The position numbers were made by a program, and so were the translations under genes. 9,216 nucleotides of DNA from the IMG/VR virus record IMGVR_UViG_641736222_000030, positions 1 to 9,216 of that record, one strand, 5' to 3'. The notes below the pieces were generated by a model. That model was not told the origin of the DNA. It did no database searches and saw only the letters and a program-made list of their open reading frames with translations. This document shows positions 1-9,216 of the stretch, one piece after another. The stretch's first letter is position 1; every line of letters begins with the position of its first letter. This stretch comes from a virus (lineage: Duplodnaviria > Heunggongvirae > Uroviricota > Caudoviricetes).

Positions 1-1239
1 ATGAGCAGGGCAATTCATAGACTTAGCGACACTCTTTTACGAAAATTAAGCGGATCACCAACCACAAAAAGCACCTTTTTTAATGATGGTGGCAACCTTA
101 GCGTAAGGCATTCAACCAATGGCCTGTTAACCTGGTATTTCACTTACAGGGCTGGAACTGGTAGGCAGATATCACCGGAACGTCTGAGGCTGGGCAATTA
201 TCCCGATCTGAGCCTGAAAGCTGCCAGGGAAAAAGCGGCACAGTGTCGCGCCTGGCTGGCTGAGGGGAAAAATCCGCGCTATGAACTTAATCATGCTGTA
301 CAGGACGCGTTAGCCCCCGTGACGGTTAAGGAAGCGCTCACTTACTGGCTTGAATCGTACGCAAAGGAAAAGCGCACTGACTACGAATCACTGAAAAGCC
401 GGATCAATAAACACATAATTAGCCAGATTGGCGCTATGCCACTGGAAAAATGCGAGCTACGCCACTGGCTGGCCTGTTTTGACCAGCTTGCTAAGCGTAA
501 TCCGGTATCAGCCGGATTTTTGCTACAGGTATGCAAACAGGCGCTTAAGTACTGCCGAAAACGACGATACGCAATCAGCAACGTTCTTGATGATATGGTT
601 GTCGGTGATGTTGGGAAAAAAGCAGAAATAAGCGAGCGCGTACTAACAAACAAGGAGCTTGGGGAATTACTACGCGCCCTGGATGAAAAAATTTACCCAC
701 CGTACTACAGCGCCCTGATTCGCCTCCTGATTGTCTTCGGATGCCGTACCACTGAGCTAAGACGCTCTGAGGTCCAGGAATGGGATTTTAAAGAAATGCT
801 CTGGACCGTGCCGAAAGAACACAGCAAAACGAAGGTAGCAATATTCAGGCCAATACCGGAAGCGATCTTGCCGTTTGTCATGAAGCTGGTGGAGCAGAAC
901 AGGCACACGGGATTATTGCTCGGAGAACTGAAAGGGCAATCATCCGTATCAGAGTACGGAAGAACGGCACACAGACGCATTAATCAAGCCCCATGGACGT
1001 TGCACGACATCCGGCACACGTTTACAACGATGCTGAACGATTTAGGCGTTGATCCTCATGTAGTGGAGCAGCTAACCGCGCACCAGTTGCCAGGAATGCA
1101 ACGAGTCTATAATCACTCCCGTTATCTTGATGCAAAACGTGACGCTCTTAATCTATGGGGTGAGCGTCTCGAGCTTCTCCAGAACAATGATGAAAAAATC
1201 GTTGTTATGACCTCGCGAATTTACTCCCAAAATTCTTGA
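1..1239 (+). CDS. int: site-specific tyrosine recombinase, P4-type phage integrase (412 aa)
   Basis: Complete ORF. N-terminus (DGGNLSVRHSTNGLLTWYFTYRAGTGRQ) resembles the arm-DNA-binding domain of P4-family integrases; C-terminal catalytic domain has box I Arg (FGCRTTELRR), HxxR (LHDIRHTFTT) and a Tyr region (VYNHSRYLD). Confidence 0.93.
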   Translation: MSRAIHRLSDTLLRKLSGSPTTKSTFFNDGGNLSVRHSTNGLLTWYFTYRAGTGRQISPERLRLGNYPDLSLKAAREKAAQCRAWLAEGKNPRYELNHAVQDALAPVTVKEALTYWLESYAKEKRTDYESLKSRINKHIISQIGAMPLEKCELRHWLACFDQLAKRNPVSAGFLLQVCKQALKYCRKRRYAISNVLDDMVVGDVGKKAEISERVLTNKELGELLRALDEKIYPPYYSALIRLLIVFGCRTTELRRSEVQEWDFKEMLWTVPKEHSKTKVAIFRPIPEAILPFVMKLVEQNRHTGLLLGELKGQSSVSEYGRTAHRRINQAPWTLHDIRHTFTTMLNDLGVDPHVVEQLTAHQLPGMQRVYNHSRYLDAKRDALNLWGERLELLQNNDEKIVVMTSRIYSQNS

Positions 1240-1388
1240 CAAATTACGGCTGTTTTTCTTCGGGAAAATAGCCTTCTTAAAAAAATCGTCGAAGTTCGAC
1301 CAAAGTTCGTCGTTTTTTTATTTGTCAATCATCGAAAAAATTGAAATTCACTCTCCTGAATCCTTATTCTCTGTTTCTTGATTGTTCC

Positions 1389-1437
1389 AACACCTGATGG
1401 TTTATCTATTTGTTTTTAATGAGGTAATTCAGGTGTT
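1389..1437. repeat. perfect 9-bp inverted repeat AACACCTGA / TCAGGTGTT, 31-bp AT-rich spacer, in int-alpA intergenic region
   Basis: Read directly: AACACCTGA at 1389-1397, its reverse complement TCAGGTGTT at 1429-1437. Candidate operator or recombination-directionality site; function not established. Confidence 0.3.
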
Positions 1438-1649
1438 ATGCCAAATGACGACATTTTTTGTTGCGTCGCTTAAAAACTCGTGACACGATTTTAAACACTA
1501 ACGAGCTTCTACGAACCTTAGCGAACAAAGCCTTTAGCATGGTTGTGTTTTTAATTTAAGAGGTGAAAAAGAATCTAAGTAATATCCGATCTTATATATC
1601 TACAGCTAAGAGAAAAGTTTATATACGTAATTTTTATGTAGGTTTTTGT

Positions 1650-1859
1650 ATGCGTGAAATAAATGAAGATCGTGTAATCCGCGAAAAAGAATGCAGAGAG
1701 CTAACAGGCGTTTGCCGCACAACTCGTTACGAGATGGAAAAGCAGGGCCGCTTCCCCTCACGTATCAGTCTTGGCGGTCGTTCTGTTGGCTGGGTTAAGT
1801 CTGAGGTTATGGAATGGGTTAAAAGCCGGGATCGTATTAATTCAGGTAAGGCAGCGTAG
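1650..1859 (+). CDS. alpA: AlpA-family (phage-type MerR-like HTH) transcriptional regulator, 69 aa
   Basis: Translation MREINEDRVIREKECRELTGVCRTTRYEMEKQGRFPSRISLGGRSVGWVKSEVMEWVKSR matches the AlpA pattern (TG-x-SR-x-T-x-Y, FP-x-x-LG-x-RSV-x-W, SEV-x-x-W). ATG at 1650 chosen over the ORF-track GTG at 1563 because AlpA proteins are about 70 aa; the ribosome-binding site is weak (AGG about 8 nt upstream). Confidence 0.85.
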   Translation: MREINEDRVIREKECRELTGVCRTTRYEMEKQGRFPSRISLGGRSVGWVKSEVMEWVKSRDRINSGKAA

Positions 1860-1872
1860 GGGGAACATATGA

Positions 1873-1905
1873 CACATAAAACAAAGGCGACCTGTGGCGG
1901 TCGCC
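1873..1905 (-). terminator. hairpin GGCGACC-N6-GGTCGCC followed on the minus strand by TTTGTTTTAT; putative intrinsic terminator for the divergent RHH gene
   Basis: 7-bp stem 1886-1892 / 1899-1905. The T-tract exists only on the minus strand (plus 1874-1885 acataaaacaaa). Sits about 90 nt past the RHH stop on that strand. Confidence 0.4.
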
Positions 1906-1993
1906 AATGGGAAAACACTCAACATAAGCCCGAACATCATAGCGATTTGCTGTCTGGTGGGCAATGTGCTCAGTGTGCTGGCTTGCTGGTGGA

Positions 1994-2173
1994 CTATTCC
2001 TGCTCTTTGGCCTTGCGGCGCTGGCGGCGTTTGATTTCGCCTTTAACGGCAGTAACTATAAATTGCGCTTTGCTTTCACCTTCATCTAAATTTTTTTCTA
2101 AGTCTGCAACAACATCATGCGGGAATCTGGCATTTAACTGTTGCGACTTATTATTTGTTGAACCTGTTGCCAT
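1994..2173 (-). CDS. ribbon-helix-helix (CopG/Arc/MetJ-like) DNA-binding protein, 59 aa
   Basis: Minus-strand ORF MATGSTNNKSQQLNARFPHDVVADLEKNLDEGESKAQFIVTAVKGEIKRRQRRKAKEQE: N-terminal beta-strand (QQLNARFPHDVV), helix, then G-E-S-K helix N-cap, and a basic tail. Start at the internal ATG (plus 2171-2173) with RBS AGAGAGGA 7 nt upstream. The competing + strand reading here is Cys/Trp-rich and not protein-like. Confidence 0.6.
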   Translation of the reverse strand: MATGSTNNKSQQLNARFPHDVVADLEKNLDEGESKAQFIVTAVKGEIKRRQRRKAKEQE

Positions 2174-2189
2174 TACTGAATCCTCTCTA

Positions 2190-2290
2190 AGTTGGTGCGA
2201 TTCAGTATACACAAAAAAAATTCAGAGAAAAGGCTTGAAGTGCGATTCACTTGCTGATAGGTTAAAAACAGATGGTGCGATGCACCAAAT
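2190..2290. promoter_or_regulatory. divergent promoter/operator region with three direct repeats of GTGCGATTCA
   Basis: GTGCGATTCA at 2195-2204 and 2240-2249, plus GTGCGATGCA (one mismatch) at 2275-2284. Minus-strand -10-like TATACT (plus 2204-2209) overlaps repeat 1; plus-strand TTGAAG-17 bp-TAGGTT (2235-2263) has repeat 2 in its spacer. Confidence 0.4.
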
Positions 2291-2363
2291 AACAACGCCC
2301 CGCAGTGGTGGCACACATGCAGGGCGTCTAACAACCAACGATAGCAACAGTATCGAGGTAGCT

Positions 2364-2570
2364 ATGAGAAATCATACCACACACCCGCAAGGGCGGGACT
2401 CGCACAACCTGAATAAATACATCTGGCGTTTTATCGCCCTGAGCACGGCACAACCGCGCGTGATTACCATTGAGGCCACCAGCGAACAGGAAGCACGCCA
2501 GCAATCTCCGGCTGGCTGCGTGATGGTATTCGCTGCCCGTATTCGTCAGGGGGAAACCTATGCACAATAA
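2364..2570 (+). CDS. hypothetical small protein, 68 aa (first gene of coupled cassette)
   Basis: C-terminal 68 codons of ORF 1869-2570, beginning MRNHTTHPQGRDSHNLNKYIWRFIALSTAQ. ATG at 2364 preceded by GAGG; an alternative ATG at 2280 has a poorer RBS. Stop overlaps the next gene's start. No family recognised with confidence. Confidence 0.5.
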   Translation: MRNHTTHPQGRDSHNLNKYIWRFIALSTAQPRVITIEATSEQEARQQSPAGCVMVFAARIRQGETYAQ

Positions 2571-2784
2571 AACCACACCGGACGCAACCGCCGCCGCACT
2601 CACTACACTGATGCACGCGCTGATTGATATTTCTGTTATTGCTGACAGGGCGCATAAACACGCAGCCAGAGAATCAGAATGCATCTTCCATTATTTAGCA
2701 TTTGTGCAGCTAAAAGCCGATCAGGCACTGGATAAGGCCGGAAAAATTATCATGGCTGATGTGCAGGAGGTGCACCATGCATAA
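2560..2784 (+). CDS. hypothetical small protein, 74 aa
   Basis: ORF beginning MHNKTTPDATAAALTTLMHALIDISVIADR. RBS GGGGGA upstream; 11-nt overlap with preceding gene and 8-nt overlap (ATGCATAA) with the following gene. Confidence 0.6.
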   Translation: MHNKTTPDATAAALTTLMHALIDISVIADRAHKHAARESECIFHYLAFVQLKADQALDKAGKIIMADVQEVHHA

Positions 2785-3142
2785 CCTGTCAATTTCTGAC
2801 CTTAACAGCATTCAGTTTGACGAGAAATTTACCGGGCAGTTGCTGGTCAATGTGGAGAACGGGCGCATAGTGCGTAATTATCACCTGCCGGATGGTGCAA
2901 TTGCCGGAAGCGTTGAAGCATTGCTGGAACTGGCGGAACGTGCGCGACTGATTAAGCCGTCAACGAGCCATCACGATGATGATCTGCATTTTACCGGATG
3001 TATGGTGAGTCACTACGAAAACGGCGTCGAGGTATCCTGCGAACGGCTGCGTGATGATTGCTGTTTCGGCACACTGCCGGAATTTATCGAGTTGCTGACC
3101 AGTTGCGGTTATCATGTCATTCAGGGGGGTAAACATGCGTGA
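2777..3142 (+). CDS. hypothetical protein, 121 aa, Cys/His-rich C-terminal half
   Basis: Start at ATG 2777 with consensus RBS AGGAGG (the ORF-track start 2759 has none). C-terminal 50 aa carry Cys75, Cys88, Cys95, Cys96, Cys110 and several His, suggesting metal binding. No family recognised. Confidence 0.65.
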   Translation: MHNLSISDLNSIQFDEKFTGQLLVNVENGRIVRNYHLPDGAIAGSVEALLELAERARLIKPSTSHHDDDLHFTGCMVSHYENGVEVSCERLRDDCCFGTLPEFIELLTSCGYHVIQGGKHA

Positions 3143-3368
3143 TGATCGTTTTAATTCCCTGAAACAGGAATTTTCCGGCGTTCCTGATGATGCGGCTGAT
3201 GCGCTTTCGTCAATGCCAGAGCTTATTAGAGCGGCTTTTTTCTTACTTTCCACGAGAGAATATAAATCAACGGGGCTTGATGTACTGAATATCGCCGCCG
3301 ATTATGCGGAATATGTGGCAGAGGCGCGTTATAGAAGAAAATTTCCTGAGGATGTAAGCCATGCGTGA
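3135..3368 (+). CDS. hypothetical small protein, 77 aa
   Basis: Start ATG 3135 after GGGGGG RBS; the junction with the previous gene reads ATGCGTGA (start embedded 5 nt before upstream stop). Translation begins MRDDRFNSLKQEFSGVPDDAADAL. Confidence 0.6.
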   Translation: MRDDRFNSLKQEFSGVPDDAADALSSMPELIRAAFFLLSTREYKSTGLDVLNIAADYAEYVAEARYRRKFPEDVSHA

Positions 3369-3594
3369 TATTTACCACCAAACAATAGACCGCGCATTTC
3401 TTGCACTTTCTCACAGTGAAAACATGATGGAAATATTTCGCATATGGCTTGAAACACTTGGCGACAATGAACGCGACAAACAAAAATCAAGAATTGCCAC
3501 GGCATTAATAACGCTTCTTGAGCCTGTAATAATGGAACTGCAAGAAATAGATCTATTGCACGACAGATATAAAGAACAGCACACCGGAGAATAA
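3361..3594 (+). CDS. hypothetical small protein, 77 aa
   Basis: Same ATGCGTGA overlap junction as the previous gene; RBS GAGGA. Translation begins MRDIYHQTIDRAFLALSHSENMMEIFRIWL, predicted helical. Confidence 0.6.
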   Translation: MRDIYHQTIDRAFLALSHSENMMEIFRIWLETLGDNERDKQKSRIATALITLLEPVIMELQEIDLLHDRYKEQHTGE

Positions 3595-3599
3595 AAATA

Positions 3600-3899
3600 A
3601 TGAAACTTAAATATTCTGGCTTAACTGCCAGTGGCAACACTCACCCTAAATTTACGCGCGGTGATATTTACCGCGACCAGTACGGCGGCACGGTAATGAT
3701 TAAGGGCGTGGAAGAACGGCGCGTAACCTACCGCCGTGAAGGTTACGAATATGATTGCGTGATGCCTGTTTATCAGTTCCGGCGTGATTTTTCTCTGGTA
3801 CAGACCGCGCCGCATAACGTGCCCACCAGCAACGCCAGGGCACGGGCAAACATCCAGAAGCTGAAAACCATGATTAACGGATTCAGGGGTAAAAAATGA
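3600..3899 (+). CDS. hypothetical protein, 99 aa, coupled to replication gene
   Basis: RBS GGAGA 9 nt upstream; stop overlaps the primase start as ATGA (3896-3899). Basic protein beginning MKLKYSGLTASGNTHPKFTRGDIYRDQYGG. Confidence 0.6.
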   Translation: MKLKYSGLTASGNTHPKFTRGDIYRDQYGGTVMIKGVEERRVTYRREGYEYDCVMPVYQFRRDFSLVQTAPHNVPTSNARARANIQKLKTMINGFRGKK

Positions 3900-5650
3900 A
3901 ACTGGCACCGAACGTAAAACAGCAGTCACGCGGCATAAAACACAAAGAAACAGAAGTCATTATTTTTGCGGGTAGTGATGCCTGGGCACACGCGAAACAA
4001 TGGCAGGAACATGATGCGCGTATGGCCGGAGATAATGAGCCTCCTGTGTGGCTTGGGGAGCAGCAGTTATCAGAACTGGATAAGCTGCAAATTGTGCCGG
4101 AAGGCAGAAAATCCGTGCGCATATTCAGGGCCGGATATCTTGCGCCAGTAATGATAAAGGCGATTGGCCAGAAGCTGGCGGCGGCAGGCGTACAGGATGC
4201 AAATTTTTACCCTGATGGTATGCACGGTCAGAAGGTGGAGAACTGGCGCGAATATCTGGCCCGTGAGCGCCAGAATCTTTCTGATGGTCTGGTCATTGAG
4301 CTTCCGGTAAAGCAAAAGGCGCAACTTTCGCAGATGGCGGACAGTGAGCGCGCGCAGCTGCTTGCCGATCGCTTTGATGGCGTTTGCGTACATCCTGAAA
4401 GTGAAATCGTTCACGTATGGCGTGGCGGGGTATGGTGTCCGGTCAGCACAATGGAACTGAGCCGCGAAATGGTGGCGATCTATTCAGAGCACAGGGCCAC
4501 TTTCAGCAAGCGCGTAATCAATAACGCCGTGGAAGCGTTAAAAGTTATTGCCGAACCAATGGGCGAGCCGTCCGGCGATTTGCTGCCGTTCGCCAATGGT
4601 GCGCTTGACCTGAAAACGGGGGAATTTTCCCCGCACACGCCGGAGAACTGGATCACCACGCACAACGGCATTGAGTACACGCCACCAGCACCAGGGGAGA
4701 ACATCCGCGATAACGCGCCAAACTTTCATAAATGGCTTGAGCACGCAGCCCGAAAAGACCCGCGCAAGATGATGCGTATATGTGCCGCGCTGTACATGAT
4801 TATGGCGAACCGGTACGACTGGCAGATGTTTATTGAGGCCAGCGGAGACGGCGGGAGCGGTAAAAGTACATTCACACACATAGCCAGCCTTCTGGCAGGG
4901 AAACAGAACACGGTAAGCGCTGAAATGACATCGCTTGATGATGCTGGTGGACGTGCGCAGGTTGTCGGGAGTCGTCTTATCGTCCTGGCAGACCAGCCGA
5001 AATATACAGGCGAAGGAACGGGCATCAAGAAAATCACGGGCGGCGACCCCGTGGAAATAAACCCGAAATATGAAAAGCGTTTCACGGCGGTAATCAGGGC
5101 GGTGGTGCTGGCGACCAATAATAACCCGATGATATTCACCGAACGGGCCGGAGGTGTGGCACGTCGTCGCGTGATTTTCCGTTTCGACAATATTGTTAGT
5201 GAGGCCGAAAAAGACAGGGAACTACCGGAAAAAATTGCGGCTGAAATCCCCGTCATTATCCGCCGCTTGCTGGCGAACTTTACCGACCCTGAAAAGGCGA
5301 GGGCTTTACTACTGGAACAGCGTGACGGTGATGAAGCACTGGCAATAAAGCAACAGACGGATCCGGTTATTGAGTTTTGCCAGTTCCTGAATTTTCTGGA
5401 GGAAGCGCGCGGCCTGATGATGGGTGGCGGTGGTGATTCAGTGAAGTACACGACCAGGAACAGCCTTTACCGCGTCTATCTGGCGTTTATGGCATACGCA
5501 GGCAGGAGCAAACCGCTAAACGTGGCTGAGTTCAGCAAGGCCATGAAGCCAGCGGCGAAAGTTTACGGGCATGAATATATTACGCGAAAAGTTAAGGGAG
5601 TAACGCAGACCAACGCAATTACAACAGACGATTGCGACGCGTTTTTATAA
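3896..5650 (+). CDS. replication protein: P4-family primase C-terminal (D5_N-like) region plus SF3 helicase, probable C-terminal ori-binding region (584 aa)
   Basis: Motif LPFANGALDLKTGEFSPHTPENWIT (aa 230-255) is typical of the region preceding the helicase in P4-alpha-like proteins. Walker A GDGGSGKST (aa 317-325, nt 4844-4870), Walker B RLIVLADQ (aa 360-367), motif C VLATNNNP (aa 404-411). The N-terminal ~190 aa is not confidently a primase catalytic domain. Confidence 0.92.
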   Translation: MKLAPNVKQQSRGIKHKETEVIIFAGSDAWAHAKQWQEHDARMAGDNEPPVWLGEQQLSELDKLQIVPEGRKSVRIFRAGYLAPVMIKAIGQKLAAAGVQDANFYPDGMHGQKVENWREYLARERQNLSDGLVIELPVKQKAQLSQMADSERAQLLADRFDGVCVHPESEIVHVWRGGVWCPVSTMELSREMVAIYSEHRATFSKRVINNAVEALKVIAEPMGEPSGDLLPFANGALDLKTGEFSPHTPENWITTHNGIEYTPPAPGENIRDNAPNFHKWLEHAARKDPRKMMRICAALYMIMANRYDWQMFIEASGDGGSGKSTFTHIASLLAGKQNTVSAEMTSLDDAGGRAQVVGSRLIVLADQPKYTGEGTGIKKITGGDPVEINPKYEKRFTAVIRAVVLATNNNPMIFTERAGGVARRRVIFRFDNIVSEAEKDRELPEKIAAEIPVIIRRLLANFTDPEKARALLLEQRDGDEALAIKQQTDPVIEFCQFLNFLEEARGLMMGGGGDSVKYTTRNSLYRVYLAFMAYAGRSKPLNVAEFSKAMKPAAKVYGHEYITRKVKGVTQTNAITTDDCDAFL

Positions 5651-5661
5651 TTTTTTGTAAA

Positions 5662-5890
5662 AGCCCTCTACCCCATCTACCCGAATGAAATAAATACATA
5701 TTATTCAACATGATAAGTGGGTAGAGGGCCAGGTAGAAGGCTAATAAAAGCTCTCTACCTCTTCTACCTGATTTTATCAGTTTCAGGTAGCAGGGTAGAC
5801 GGCAGGTAGAGGAGCCCCAAAAGCTATCTACCCGCTGAAAGCCTCGCCATTACTGACATGATGAGCATTCGGGTAGATGGGTAGAGGGGG
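5662..5890. repeat. iteron array: putative origin of replication of the element
   Basis: Eleven exact copies of GGTAGA/TCTACC plus one GGTAGC variant. TCTACC at 5667, 5676, 5754, 5763, 5827; GGTAGA at 5720, 5732, 5794, 5805, 5872, 5880; GGTAGC at 5786. Mostly in pairs 8-12 bp apart. Nested inverted repeats: 5664-5682 vs 5871-5889 (19 bp, one G indel), 5663-5673 vs 5719-5729, 5730-5739 vs 5761-5770. AT-rich segment at 5683-5718. Lies directly 3' of the helicase gene. Confidence 0.55.
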
Positions 5891-5934
5891 GGGAGGCACA
5901 ACTAAAAACTTTTTAAACGAGGGGGTGAAAATAA

Positions 5935-6249
5935 ATGCGCATACATCAAAATCACTTAACAAACATGCCAGCCGAAAACATGAATCAGGGGCGACAAATG
6001 ACCAAAATTCGCAGAGACAGAACAGAGCCAAAATATAAAGCGTTAGACATGACTGAGCATACCTTAAAGGTGGCAATCAGAACGATAGACCGCCATGCGG
6101 GGGAAGGATACGCGAAAGCACATCCCGACCTGATAAGCGCATTCATGACCACGACGGCGGCAAACTTTGCCACGCTGACAGAACGGGAGATTGCCGAAGC
6201 GGAACAGGTAACAACCATCAACATTAAAACCGGAGAGGTGGAATCATGA
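5935..6249 (+). CDS. hypothetical protein, 104 aa (start uncertain; alternative ATG 5998 gives 83 aa), coupled to ssb
   Basis: ATG 5935 follows GAGGGGG; ATG 5998 follows AGGGG. Stop overlaps the ssb start as ATGA (6246-6249). No family recognised. Confidence 0.5.
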   Translation: MRIHQNHLTNMPAENMNQGRQMTKIRRDRTEPKYKALDMTEHTLKVAIRTIDRHAGEGYAKAHPDLISAFMTTTAANFATLTEREIAEAEQVTTINIKTGEVES

Positions 6250-6668
6250 CAGCACAGATAGCCGCTTACGGGCGGCTGGTGGCTGACCCACAGTTAAAGA
6301 CCACCAGCAAGGGTACACAAATGGCGATGGCGGGTATGGCTATCCCCCTGCCGTGCAGCCAGGCCGATGACGGAACGGCGACGATGTGGTTATCCGTCCT
6401 GGCGTTTGGCAGACAGGCCGACGCACTGGCAAAACACCGCAAAGGCGAGCTGGTGAGCGTGGCGGGTAACATGCAGGTAAGCCAGTGGACAGGCCAGAAC
6501 GGCGAAACGCGGCAGGGCTGGCAGGTTATCGCAGACAGCGTAATCAGTGCGAGAACGGCGCGACCGGGCGGCAAAAAAGGCCAGCAGGGGCAGGCTACTG
6601 ACGCACTGAACAGGGCAAAACAACAGGCGGGGAATGATGATCCGTACGGGGATAACATACCGTTTTAA
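6246..6668 (+). CDS. ssb: single-stranded DNA-binding protein (OB-fold), 140 aa
   Basis: Aligns by eye with E. coli SSB: IAAYGRLVADPQL vs VILVGNLGQDPEV; WLSVLAFGRQADALAKHRKGELVSVAGNMQVSQWTGQNGETRQ vs [44 protein letters not shown]; Gly/Gln-rich linker; C-terminal tip DDPYGDNIPF vs host DDDIPF. Confidence 0.85.
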   Translation: MTAQIAAYGRLVADPQLKTTSKGTQMAMAGMAIPLPCSQADDGTATMWLSVLAFGRQADALAKHRKGELVSVAGNMQVSQWTGQNGETRQGWQVIADSVISARTARPGGKKGQQGQATDALNRAKQQAGNDDPYGDNIPF

Positions 6669-6683
6669 GCAACGAGTGACAGA

Positions 6684-6708
6684 AGCCGGAGAAATCCGGC
6701 TTTTTTGT
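6684..6708 (+). terminator. rho-independent terminator after ssb
   Basis: 7-bp GC-rich stem AGCCGGA (6684-6690) / TCCGGCT (6695-6701), GAAA tetraloop, then T6 (6701-6706), 16 nt after the ssb stop. Confidence 0.7.
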
Positions 6709-6899
6709 AGGTACTCCTGGTGGGGGTGGCCTGTCCACGGGGCGGAGGGGCGCGGAAAAAGGCGCATTTTTTGATTTTTATGGCACCATCACCACCACTA
6801 TAAGTTATTGATATATTGAGGAATAAAAATTTTTAGTGTCGAATCAGGTTGTTTTTTGTTCATCACTGGAGCGTTCCCGAAAGCATTTACAAAAAAATA

Positions 6900-6944
6900 G
6901 GCGCAAAAAAAGCGCCCCCGATTGCTGTTACCGGAGGCGCTTTT
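6900..6944 (+). terminator. alternative-hairpin element with weak terminator, upstream of capsid operon
   Basis: GCGCC (6912-6916) can pair with GGCGC at 6900-6904 (7-nt A loop) or with GGCGC at 6936-6940 (extended by 6918-6920 / 6932-6934, 11-nt loop), the latter followed by TTTT (6941-6944). On the minus strand the first hairpin is followed by TATTTTTTT. Confidence 0.3.
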
Positions 6945-7025
6945 ACACGACAAAGGAGTTTTTATCGCCAGGATGACGAGTCTTAATACTGCTTCAATGG
7001 CAAAAATGCGTCAATAACTTTGCCT

Positions 7026-7065
7026 TTCTGAGAATAATCAGAAAAAACATAATCTGATTTTCAGG
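7026..7065. promoter_or_regulatory. palindromic TCTGA/TCAGA sites in the probable capsid-operon promoter region
   Basis: TTCTGA-gaataa-TCAGAA (7026-7043, perfect 6-bp arms) and TCTGA-ttt-TCAGG (7053-7065), 70-110 bp upstream of the 7136 start. Candidate activator or repressor sites. Confidence 0.35.
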
Positions 7066-7135
7066 TAGAAAATGATTTATCTATTACTTTTATCGATCAA
7101 TAATGATGCCCGTTAATCAAAACGGAGGCGGATTT

Positions 7136-7330
7136 ATGCCAGAGAACAACACCAGAAAGCCGGATAAAAGTGCCACGGTACACATAGACGCCGGAACTAT
7201 GGAGAAGATCGAACGCTATCAGCAGTTCATCAAAGATAATCACCCGGGTATGCCAGTGCCCACGAAAGGACAAATCACACGCAGCGCGGTTGAATACTGG
7301 TACAGGGCAACGTTAGGAGCCTGGCTATGA
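7136..7330 (+). CDS. small RHH-like protein, 64 aa, coupled to capsid gene
   Basis: Start ATG 7136 with GGAGG RBS 8 nt upstream (the ORF-track start 7103 has none). MPENNTRKPDKSATVHIDAGTMEKIERYQQFIKDNHPGMPVPTKGQITRSAVEYWYRATLGAWL shows a beta-strand (KSATVHID), helix, then G-Q-I-T-R-S helix N-cap. Stop overlaps the capsid start as ATGA (7327-7330). Confidence 0.55.
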   Translation: MPENNTRKPDKSATVHIDAGTMEKIERYQQFIKDNHPGMPVPTKGQITRSAVEYWYRATLGAWL

Positions 7331-9216
7331 AAACATGGTTTTCCATTAAGGCTATGGCAGATGTTGTACATGTGCGCATTTATGACGAGATCGGCGGGTA
7401 CGGTGTAAAGGCATCGGCACTTACTGACGAGATCAACGCGTGCGGTAATGTGTCTGAAATCCATCTTCGCATCCATTCACCTGGTGGCGACATCTTTGAA
7501 GGGCTGGCTATCTATAACGCCCTGAAAAATCATCCGGCAAAGAAAATTGTACACATTGAAGGCATGGCGGCTTCTATGGCCTCGTTTATTGCCATGTGTG
7601 GCGATCACATCGTTATGCCTGAAAACGCGATGATGATGATACATGCCCCCCGTGGTGTTACTGCCGGAGTGTCGGGCGACGTTCGCCGCTTTGCTGACCT
7701 GATGGACAAGCTGGGCGACACGATGGCGGAAACCTACGCCGGAAGAACGGGCAGGAGCAAACAGGAAATCACCGCCATGATGGAGGCGGAAACCTGGATG
7801 GATGGCAATGAGTGTAAGGCTAACGGCTTCGCAGATGAGGTTATAGCCGCGATTACAGCAATGGCCCGAATTGAATCAAAACGAATCGGAGATTTTTCAA
7901 ATATGCCGGAAAAAATTAAAAGCATGATCAGCCAGAAAACTACCAGTGGCGAACAGGAACGACTTAACGGCATCCGTGAATTGTTTGGCACGTTCAACGG
8001 AAGATATAACGACCTGGCTATAAGTTGTCTTGCTGATTCAGAATGTAGCGTTGAGAATGCACGCGAACGCCTTTTACTCGCTATGGGTAAAGAATCAACG
8101 CCAACAAACAAAACCACCCCCGCAAATCTTTACTACGCGTACACGGATAACGGCAACATAACCGGCGATGCAATGCGCCAGGGGCTTAATGCGCGTCTTG
8201 GTCACGAACGGGCCGAACGCGGTAATCCTTACGCCATGATGAGCCTTTTCGATATGGCACAGGCATCATTAACCCATCGTGGTATAAGCACGGGCAGCTA
8301 CGGCACACGCTCGCAGATAGTAAACGCGGCATTCACCCACAGCAGCAGCGATTTTACCGATATTCTTGCTGGTGGCGCTGAAAAATCAGTGCTTGCAGGC
8401 TGGGAGCACAGCGGCGAAACATTCCGCCAGTGGACGAAAAAAGGTTCCCTTTCAAACTTCCGGGAAGCCCGCCGCGTTGGTATGAATGGCTTCTCAACGT
8501 TAAACAAAGTGCCGGAAGGGGCAGAATATAAATACATCACCACCAGCGATCGCGGTGAACCCATCGCGCTGGCTACTTACGGGAATATTTTCAGCATTAC
8601 CCGCCAGGCGATAATCAATGATGACCTTGATCAGTTATCAACGGTGCCAATGGCTATGGGCCGTGCTGCATCAAGAACGGTGGGAAATCTGGTTAATCTG
8701 GTGCTTACAGGCAACGTAAAACTTTCTGACGGAATAGCGCTGTTTGACAAAAAACACAGCAACCTGATTGAAGCAGGACTGACAACACCGGGACTTAGTG
8801 CAGCACGTCACCTGATGCGCACACAGAAGGACAAAAATGGCGAAGTGCTGAATATTGCGCCTAAATTCCTTTTAGTTCCGGCAGCACTGGAAGATCGCGC
8901 GTTGCAGATGATTAACTCAACCGCACCTTTCGGGGCTGATAAAAACAGCGGGATCTTTAACCCGTATCACAAGCTACTTGATATCATCGTCGATCCCCGC
9001 CTTGATGATATCAGCGAAAAACAATGGTACATGCTTTCCGCACAGGGAACGGACACAATCGAGGTGGCTTATCTTGATGGCAATGACGAGCCTTACCTTG
9101 AACAGCAGGAAGGTTTTATCGTTGACGGCGTGGCCTGGAAAGTCCGTATTGATGCAGGTGTGGCAGCTCTGGATTATCGCGGTATGGTCAAATCAGGCGG
9201 GACAGATTCACTCTGA
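7327..9216 (+). CDS. fusion ORF: ClpP-like (S14) prohead serine protease domain, linker, probable HK97-fold major capsid domain (629 aa)
   Basis: N-terminal ~180 aa align with ClpP: IHSPGG vs INSPGG; GMAASMAS vs GQAASMG (Ser83, nt 7573-7575); MMIHAP vs MIHQP (His106). The C-terminal ~330 aa (from about aa 300) have the size and composition of a phage major capsid protein (FSITRQAIINDDLDQL, LLVPAALEDRALQ). No stop codon separates the two parts. Confidence 0.85.
   Translation: MKTWFSIKAMADVVHVRIYDEIGGYGVKASALTDEINACGNVSEIHLRIHSPGGDIFEGLAIYNALKNHPAKKIVHIEGMAASMASFIAMCGDHIVMPENAMMMIHAPRGVTAGVSGDVRRFADLMDKLGDTMAETYAGRTGRSKQEITAMMEAETWMDGNECKANGFADEVIAAITAMARIESKRIGDFSNMPEKIKSMISQKTTSGEQERLNGIRELFGTFNGRYNDLAISCLADSECSVENARERLLLAMGKESTPTNKTTPANLYYAYTDNGNITGDAMRQGLNARLGHERAERGNPYAMMSLFDMAQASLTHRGISTGSYGTRSQIVNAAFTHSSSDFTDILAGGAEKSVLAGWEHSGETFRQWTKKGSLSNFREARRVGMNGFSTLNKVPEGAEYKYITTSDRGEPIALATYGNIFSITRQAIINDDLDQLSTVPMAMGRAASRTVGNLVNLVLTGNVKLSDGIALFDKKHSNLIEAGLTTPGLSAARHLMRTQKDKNGEVLNIAPKFLLVPAALEDRALQMINSTAPFGADKNSGIFNPYHKLLDIIVDPRLDDISEKQWYMLSAQGTDTIEVAYLDGNDEPYLEQQEGFIVDGVAWKVRIDAGVAALDYRGMVKSGGTDSL

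Follow-up and report, generated by a model that had tools for sequence, protein, structure and literature searches.

The prototype phage-inducible chromosomal island (PICI) of Gram-negative bacteria is EcCICFT073, whose replication origin was placed directly 3' of the initiator gene in a study that also mapped the iterons of several E. coli PICIs (PMC6092414; Fillol-Salom et al, 2018, ISME J). A clone of the EcCICFT073 pri-ori segment maintains a thermosensitive plasmid whereas Δpri-ori fails to do so, and pri-Δori gives significantly fewer colonies (PMC6092414). A deletion primer in the supplement of the same paper carries CAGGTAGACAGGGTAGACAG, which corresponds to the first iteron pair, and the cos site of EcCICFT073 was cloned as a construct separate from ori (PMC6092414). 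Our literature searches found nothing besides PMC6092414 that pairs EcCICFT073 with iterons, and nothing relevant for GGTAGA as an iteron.

Two further satellite systems provide points of reference. The origin of SaPIs lies directly downstream of rep and comprises 6-12 penta- or hexanucleotide iterons and a central AT-rich region, with at least two iterons on each side of that region pointing in opposite ways (PMC9371898). The SaPI Rep recognises these iterons through its C-terminal winged-helix domain, acts as a self-loading SF3 helicase, and binds and melts the origin without ATP (PMC9371898). According to its GenBank annotation (X51522), the crr of P4 is made up of two 120-bp units with ten type-1 repeats in total, and the P4 ori is located 4.5 kb off.

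We analysed a stretch of 9,216 nucleotides from IMG/VR virus record IMGVR_UViG_641736222_000030 (positions 1 to 9,216 of that record; hereafter the window), in which a block of short repeats follows the replication gene. We read positions 5651-5934 as the vegetative replication origin of an EcCICFT073-type Gram-negative PICI, and assign this reading a probability of roughly 0.9. All genes of the window are encoded on the plus strand:

1-1239, plus strand: tyrosine integrase (Pfam)
1563-1859, plus strand: AlpA (Pfam)
between AlpA and DUF4222 in the gene list of the window, plus strand: Icd-like protein
3600-3899, plus strand: DUF4222 protein
3896-5650, plus strand: pri-rep, 584 aa (Pfam D5_N, DUF5906 and Pox_D5 C-terminal)
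5357-5647, plus strand: C-terminal domain of Rep, aa 488-584 (matches 1KA8; identity tracks iteron class)
between the repeat block and ssb, plus strand: small ORF
6246-6668, plus strand: SSB (Pfam SSB, 4.9e-15; TIGR00621, 59.3 bits, above cut-off)
7327 to the end of the window, plus strand: ClpP-protease/major-capsid fusion

This layout, with int, alpA and a unidirectional rightward operon, fits a Gram-negative PICI, and the island-encoded SSB is likely an accessory of the replication module. The best match among complete genomes is E. coli O145:H28 strain RM12581 (97.5% identity, 92% coverage), in which the island is ~10.5 kb long and inserted between cspD and clpS, an attachment site shared with published PICIs. 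Of 5426 complete E. coli genomes, 1190 were hit by a query with the ori region and 1943 by a query with the whole window.

The repeat block of the window aligns with the ori regions of EcCICFT073 and EcCIIHE3034 with the hexamers in register. EcCICFT073 shares with the window the (G)TCTACC/GGTAGA hexamer, the order of orientations, the position directly 3' of pri-rep and the gene order int-alpA-...-DUF4222-pri-rep-ori-orf-ssb, and it likewise carries 11 hexamers in one cluster plus only a stray copy elsewhere. The ori alleles differ in that they are just ~77% identical and have different inter-iteron flanks; alleles of the EcCICFT073 type have lost the forward site at 5732 and gained a reverse copy nearby, which leaves the total at 11. 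The capsid modules differ as well, the window encoding a protease-capsid fusion where CFT073 has a separate capsid and decoration protein. Because the Rep proteins are near-identical and the orthologous ori has been published and tested on plasmids, the block represents another allele of the known PICI ori, and is as such an ordinary, already described element.

The Rep encoded directly upstream of the block is 99% identical (576/584) to EcCICFT073 Pri-Rep. Its Walker A motif GDGGSGKS (aa 317-324) lies within DUF5906, the SF3 helicase domain, and aa 194-432 match SaPI5 PriRep (7OLA, E = 7e-15); by homology, we classify Rep as a self-loading SF3 helicase and initiator. Identity to P4 alpha is 40% over aa 141-573 (tblastn), and aa 488-576 match the alpha origin-binding domain, whose structure has been solved (PDB 1KA8, E = 7.7e-6), so that iteron recognition is presumed to reside in the C-terminal winged-helix domain. 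Rep aa 1-150 gave no Pfam match even at E ≤ 10, and the P4 alpha alignment begins only at aa 141; a primase, as the name Pri-Rep implies, is thus not evident, because aa 1-140 have neither a Pfam match nor an alignment to alpha.

The initial annotation had described eleven GGTAGA/TCTACC hexamers in both orientations immediately after the helicase gene, and the exact positions agree with this description. The rep stop codon occupies 5648-5650 and the first hexamer begins 16 nt later; 11 of the 12 copies in the window are packed into 219 bp (5667-5885), six forward (starts at 5720, 5732, 5794, 5805, 5872 and 5880) and five reverse (5667, 5676, 5754, 5763 and 5827). The block sits in the 284-nt gap between the rep stop (5650) and the ATG of the next ORF at 5935, or in a gap of 347 nt if the RefSeq start of the next gene in strain RM12581 (5998) is used. 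Its components are as follows:

5667-5672 and 5676-5681, minus strand: left outer iteron pair, TCTACC, 9 nt apart
5683-5718, no strand: AT-rich spacer, 36 bp, 19% GC, 38 nt between iterons
5720-5725 and 5732-5737, plus strand: forward iterons, GGTAGA
5754-5759 and 5763-5768, minus strand: reverse iteron pair, TCTACC, columns 95-100% conserved
5786-5791, plus strand: GGTAGC variant, directly ahead of the 5794/5805 pair
5794-5799 and 5805-5810, plus strand: forward iteron pair, GGTAGA, columns 95-100% conserved
5827-5832, minus strand: single reverse iteron, TCTACC, columns 92-98% conserved
5833-5871, no strand: right-hand spacer, 39 nt, fixed length and conserved sequence (CTGAAAGCCTCGCCATTACTGAC...)
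5872-5877 and 5880-5885, plus strand: right outer iteron pair, GGTAGA, 8 nt apart
5903-5914, plus strand: TAAAAACTTTTT box, 18 nt past the last iteron, ≥0.9 conserved
7064-7069, plus strand: isolated GGTAGA

The hexamers form six groups that alternate in orientation, with start-to-start distances within groups of 9, 12, 9, 8/11 and 8 nt and a solitary site at 5827, and the oriented sites of the window follow the pattern RGGTAGA-N-R. On both strands of the window there are 12 GGTAGA copies compared to 1.88 ± 1.29 in 200 dinucleotide-preserving shuffles (maximum 6), and scaling the shuffle mean down to 229 bp gives an expectation of ~0.05 hexamers for the block. The cluster is therefore far beyond chance. 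Single hexamers such as the one at 7064 do arise by chance, but an explanation of the entire array as a chance or low-complexity intergenic feature has a negligible probability given eleven copies in 219 bp against ~0.05 expected, and given positions that are conserved across genera.

The same reasoning applies to the isolated copy at 7064-7069, which the initial annotation had listed as an extra site. The hexamer exists, but a function for it is unsupported: we rejected it as a satellite Rep site as ~1.9 hexamers are expected per window by chance, and the 13 relatives sharing the segment carry GGTAGA in nine cases and GATAGA in four. It is most likely a chance occurrence outside the origin.

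The block had also been described as bracketed by a 19-bp inverted repeat (5664-5682 and 5871-5889). This repeat holds approximately, but in register just 14 of the 19 positions match, because the left pair is spaced by 9 nt and the right pair by 8 nt. There is no perfect 19-mer, a 1-nt shift is needed, and what seemed to bracket the block is simply its outermost iteron pairs in opposite orientation. Together, the left and right outer pairs make up the perfect inverted repeats of 16 nt (5672-5687 and 5866-5881) and 10 nt (5664-5673 and 5879-5888), and all 24 palindromes reported by the repeat finder contain opposed iterons or, in one case, sequence of the AT-rich spacer. When the whole window was scanned against Rfam (E ≤ 1), nothing rose above threshold and only eukaryotic families were returned; a miRNA precursor match at 5662-5743 was rejected (31 bits compared to a gathering score of 46.5), as was a sub-threshold snoRNA match, these hits reflecting palindromic repeats and no RNA gene. 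As a separate observation on word usage, the motif is weakly depleted in the window outside the origin (3 GTAGA compared to ~8 expected); in related loci, which are not independent of each other, it stands at 0.05 per kb.

The AT-rich core at 5683-5718 proved correct. Only two 30-mers of the window are less stable than the one at 5688-5717 within this core, which has a nearest-neighbour energy of -29.6 compared to a window mean of -41.0 ± 3.6, and the core is presumed to be the DNA-unwinding element. Neither a DnaA box (allowing up to two mismatches) nor an IHF consensus was detected in 5651-5997, and initiation is therefore probably DnaA-independent, in keeping with an initiator that fires autonomously.

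To assess conservation among close relatives, we collected 80 IMG/VR loci with Rep proteins 88-99% identical to that of the window and the RM12581 locus (L001), which together yielded 65 distinct ori sequences, 70-100% identical to the window. Across these variants the mean conservation is 0.89 for hexamer columns and 0.71 for all other columns (Mann-Whitney p = 6e-10, a value that overstates independence since the variants are phylogenetically related, although the pattern is clear-cut), and none of 10,000 random placements equalled the hexamer placement. Conservation reaches at least 95% at nine of the 12 sites with adjoining bases at about 40-55%. The columns of the left outer pair are 98-100% conserved between flanks at 37-55%, and most columns of the right outer pair are 95-98% conserved. 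The stretch 5833-5865 within the right-hand spacer has a mean conservation of 0.85. The GGTAGC variant of the initial annotation is present at 5786-5791 but is not conserved as an iteron in relatives: conservation is just 40-78% in four of the six columns, with GAGGGG or GACAGG taking its place in other alleles. We accordingly rejected it as a twelfth iteron; judged by this alignment, it is probably not functional.

More distant relatives had to be collected differently. The 120 matches listed in the Rep homologue search are all near-identical E. coli proteins, and divergent Rep loci were obtained through a search of 50%-representative sequences together with an alignment-based locus scan. A profile-guided scan with one genome per species yielded 80 loci with Rep proteins 41-90% identical, 76 of which were scorable, having at least 200 nt available downstream of the rep stop. 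A strongly over-represented hexamer is found downstream of rep in 41 of these 76 loci. This hexamer is again GGTAGA, in 6-13 copies, in Shigella, Rosenbergiella, Xenorhabdus, Symbiopectobacterium, Tolumonas, Raoultella and Pantoea, and these seven genera keep the order << AT > <<< >>> < 38 nt >> with Rep proteins that are 45-60% identical. The pair at the left outer position and a site matching 5827-5832 in position are both present in other genera. The left spacer measures 38-40 nt in 12 of 14 measurable GGTAGA-class loci and the right spacer 35-40 nt in 14 of 16, and the right spacer of relatives carries the dyad GCCAGTACTGGC. Four relatives (L097/L114, L102, L106 and L108) lack an AT-rich left spacer, so the melting site may not always lie there.

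In other loci the word is GGTGAACA (annotated in P4 as the type-1 repeat), GGTAGG or yet another, which allowed the iteron class to be compared with the sequence of Rep in 42 sequences from several genera (41 loci and the window). Between the GGTAGA and TGAACA classes the helicase domains are 56% identical and the C-terminal domains 35%, compared to 60% and 58% within the GGTAGA class and 61% and 57% within the TGAACA class. The nearest neighbour shares the iteron class in 35 of the 42 sequences when neighbours are defined by the C-terminal domain, and in 26 when they are defined by the helicase domain. The C-terminal domains closest to those of the GGTAGA class belong to the GGTAGG class, whose iteron departs from GGTAGA by a single base. 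When the P4 alpha origin-binding domain is compared with the C-terminal domains of the two classes, its identity is 47% for TGAACA and 33% for GGTAGA, whereas the helicase identity of P4 alpha is equal for the two classes. Because the class tracks the C-terminal domain while the N-terminal regions of GGTAGA-class Reps vary in length, being short (~600-aa proteins) or long (~800-aa proteins), specificity seems to travel with the C-terminal module. Two GGTAGA-class loci (L099 and L141) are exceptions, with C-terminal domains only 33-36% identical to that of the window Rep. The covariation and the homology to P4 alpha, together with the match to the tested EcCICFT073 system and the conservation of the hexamers over their flanks, support the earlier proposal of an iteron origin that the adjacent Rep recognises through its C-terminal region.

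Given its location between two gene groups, where it is read through by the rightward operon, the block might alternatively consist of operator sites for AlpA, the DUF4222 protein or the small ORF product, controlling transcription further downstream. A scan for promoters and terminators predicted no plus-strand terminator in 5500-7400, and conserved sequence (5891-5934) lies ahead of the next gene, both of which would suit an operator; the same scan, however, found no sigma-70-like promoter in 5500-7400. With neither element found there, the block is explained neither by a promoter nor by a terminator. In addition, GGTAGA clusters follow rep even in loci with no detectable alpA, DUF4222, downstream ORF or ssb homologue within 3 kb. 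Rep is the sole constant neighbour of the clusters, and the hexamer class tracks its C-terminal domain and not any of the candidate regulators. We therefore consider an operator very unlikely.

Satellites also require a packaging site, and short-repeat arrays are a frequent target of terminase small subunits, which raises the question of whether the block could be a cos or pac signal recognised by the terminase small subunit. Relatives with different capsid/terS modules nevertheless retain the same iterons, and P4 alpha is followed by the same arrangement although the P4 cos is at the genome ends, away from crr. In EcCICFT073, moreover, cos is a separate construct and the region 3' of rep was treated as ori (PMC6092414). 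A packaging signal is on these grounds extremely improbable.

The strongest competitor to the origin reading is suggested by P4 itself, in which the iteron block right after alpha is crr and not ori, the ori being 4.5 kb away. By analogy, the block of the window could be a cis-acting enhancer that binds Rep while synthesis starts from another origin of the island, away from the block, and the two blocks do have a syntax in common, namely one or more reverse sites, a spacer of ~36-39 nt, a forward pair and an A/T box. A second GGTAGA cluster is missing, however, from the window and from the complete islands of RM12581, CFT073 and IHE3034, which contain singletons only outside their one cluster. 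As the sole iteron cluster in the island, the block must serve as the origin itself. It also holds its own AT spacer of low stability, and the EcCICFT073 pri-ori segment alone maintained a plasmid (PMC6092414). A crr-like enhancer is thus unlikely.

Taking the block as the vegetative origin, we envisage the following course of initiation. A helper phage would switch on the rightward operon and thereby lead to production of Pri-Rep, as is known for EcCICFT073 and as we infer for the window element. The C-terminal winged-helix domain of Rep would then bind the RGGTAGA hexamers in their alternating groups, as homology and covariation suggest. By analogy to P4 alpha and the SaPI Reps, Rep molecules on opposed iteron groups may assemble into SF3 hexamers across the ~38-bp AT-rich spacer at 5683-5718, and these hexamers may open the spacer and self-load as helicases of 3'-5' polarity. 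The island SSB and the host polymerase III could then copy the excised circle.

Two aspects of the region appear undescribed in the literature that we found, and we regard both as leads and not as findings. The first is a TAAAACTTTT box located 15-25 nt after the terminal iteron pair. Within +200 to +299 nt past the rep stop, AAAACTTT occurs 13 times in 80 loci compared to 0.14 expected occurrences, and as it is found in both iteron classes the box is independent of iteron class; P4 crr carries AAAAAAAACTTTTTT in the same relative place as the box of the window. The second is the fixed length of the ~38-nt spacers, the right one of which (5833-5871) is also conserved in sequence. Both the TAAAACTTTT box and the ~38-bp spacers are present in P4 crr as well. 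Read jointly, these observations lead to a tentative idea, which we consider possible but rather doubtful, that the P4-alpha and Gram-negative PICI initiators share one deep, so far undescribed origin grammar. Its elements may be opposed iteron groups across fixed spacers of 36-40 nt, a specificity-independent TAAAACTTTT box located ~15-25 nt past the terminal forward pair, and an iteron specificity (GGTAGA, GGTAGG, GGTGAACA and others) that may be swapped together with the C-terminal winged-helix domain. If this were true, P4 crr would be the ancestral origin homologue, and the TAAAACTTTT box and 5833-5871 would be functional parts of the origin, such as the site of priming, the start site or the binding site of a host factor, and not filler.

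The result mainly aids annotation and raises no new question on origin biology. It settles where the origin lies in a family of PICIs with matches in roughly one fifth to one third of complete E. coli genomes, and it shows that a reader provided with the sequence only was able to call a satellite origin correctly. The table of iteron classes and C-terminal domains could guide specificity-swap experiments, and could predict replication incompatibility or cross-activation among co-resident satellites.

The iterons of plasmids such as F (RepE), pPS10 (RepA) and R6K (pi) are direct repeats of 17-22 bp that are bound by winged-helix dimers or monomers of the RepA family, and these origins work with DnaA and DnaB/DnaC. 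The window resembles them in placing initiator-binding repeats beside an AT-rich unwinding element, but differs in its sites of 6-7 bp, in the use of both orientations, in the fusion of helicase and initiator, and in the lack of a DnaA box. As for SaPIs, the layout of the window fits the published description of the SaPI ori and the helicase cores are homologous, albeit distantly and over aa 194-432 only (7OLA). There is no DNA similarity, however, the host and lineage are different, and the window has six orientation groups instead of the simple two-set layout.

In P4, alpha is homologous to Rep over the helicase and the origin-binding domains, and in both elements a block of iterons in both orientations lies directly after the initiator gene, which in P4 is crr (GenBank X51522). 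Each unit of crr, taken in the orientation of alpha, consists of reverse sites, an AT-rich spacer of ~36 nt, a forward pair and an A/T box, and this module is like the right-hand part of the window block, in which a spacer of ~36-39 nt and a forward pair are followed by AAAACTTTT. The differences are that the type-1 repeat of P4 is TGTTCACC whereas the iteron of the window is GGTAGA, that P4 has a bipartite origin with ori and crr both needed in cis whereas the window has a single cluster, that the ~320-aa N-terminal primase region of alpha is absent from the window Rep, and that the element of the window is a PICI without sid, psu and delta. Because the iteron differs and neither a bipartite ori/crr nor an alpha-type primase is present, the window is not a P4 system sensu stricto; its repeat block is nonetheless the positional and structural counterpart of P4 crr.

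Beyond the iterons themselves, two stretches on the 3' side of the origin are conserved among relatives. They are listed here with other features of the window:

1240-1560: AT-rich intergenic region before alpA
3896-4315: N-terminal domain of Rep (aa 1-140), part of 'Pri-Rep'
5833-5871: 39-nt spacer separating the single reverse iteron from the terminal forward pair
5903-5914: TAAAAACTTTTT box, 18 nt past the last iteron pair
6669-7100: AT-rich intergenic region before the capsid module
7327-9216: ClpP-type prohead protease fused to the major capsid protein

The spacer at 5833-5871 keeps its length across genera, measuring 35-40 nt in 14 of the 16 relatives in which it could be measured. In Enterobacteriaceae the sequence is conserved as well, reading CTGAAAGCCnCGCCATTACTGrC, and the dyad GCCAGTACTGGC is present in the relatives' counterparts.

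The TAAAAACTTTTT box shows a conservation of at least 0.9 among the E. coli-type origin variants. In the 80 loci from other genera, AAAACTTT occurs 13 times between +200 and +299 nt from the rep stop codon (0.14 expected), and its presence downstream of rep is common to the GGTAGA and TGAACA iteron classes. In the crr of phage P4, the iteron block directly after the alpha gene, the equivalent relative position is occupied by AAAAAAAACTTTTTT. The box may be an origin element independent of iteron specificity, or else a signal for expression of the following gene.

No clear hexamer cluster was found in a group of seven Xenorhabdus loci (L117, L119, L122, L125, L126, L132 and L148), in which AAAACTTTT shares bases with the rep stop codon itself (TAAAACTTTTGG); these relatives may have an origin of different organisation or one at another place. 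Outside the origin the iteron word is scarce: the whole window holds three further GTAGA 5-mers against about eight expected, and GGTAGA occurs outside the cluster at about 0.05 per kb in 80 related loci (L002-L081), which are not independent of one another. This scarcity might mean that stray Rep sites are avoided, with the caveat that words containing TAG are rare in general.

The two AT-rich intergenic regions (33-40% GC) include several of the window's least stable 30-mers and probably act as regulatory regions for the two parts of the operon.

For the N-terminal domain of Rep, a Pfam search returned no match even at E <= 10, and the only PHROG families matched are of unknown function or carry primase as a generic name. 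The N-terminus of the Rep homologue P4 alpha is longer and different, as are those of the relatives of about 800 aa. Priming by 'Pri-Rep' is not evident from the sequence.

Downstream, the SSB gene (6246-6668) is intact; its counterpart in the closest complete genome, E. coli O145:H28 RM12581 (L001, 12847-13257), is, according to the annotation, a pseudogene interrupted by a stop codon. Islands with 99%-identical Rep differ by a swapped morphogenesis module 3' of the replication module (7327-9216 in the window versus 8669-10071 in L163 and 7309-8711 in L164, the loci compared). Whereas the window encodes a protease-capsid fusion, the major capsid protein is separate in both the prototype EcCICFT073 and the related island EcCIIHE3034, and each of these also encodes a decoration protein; EcCIIHE3034 carries a terS in addition.
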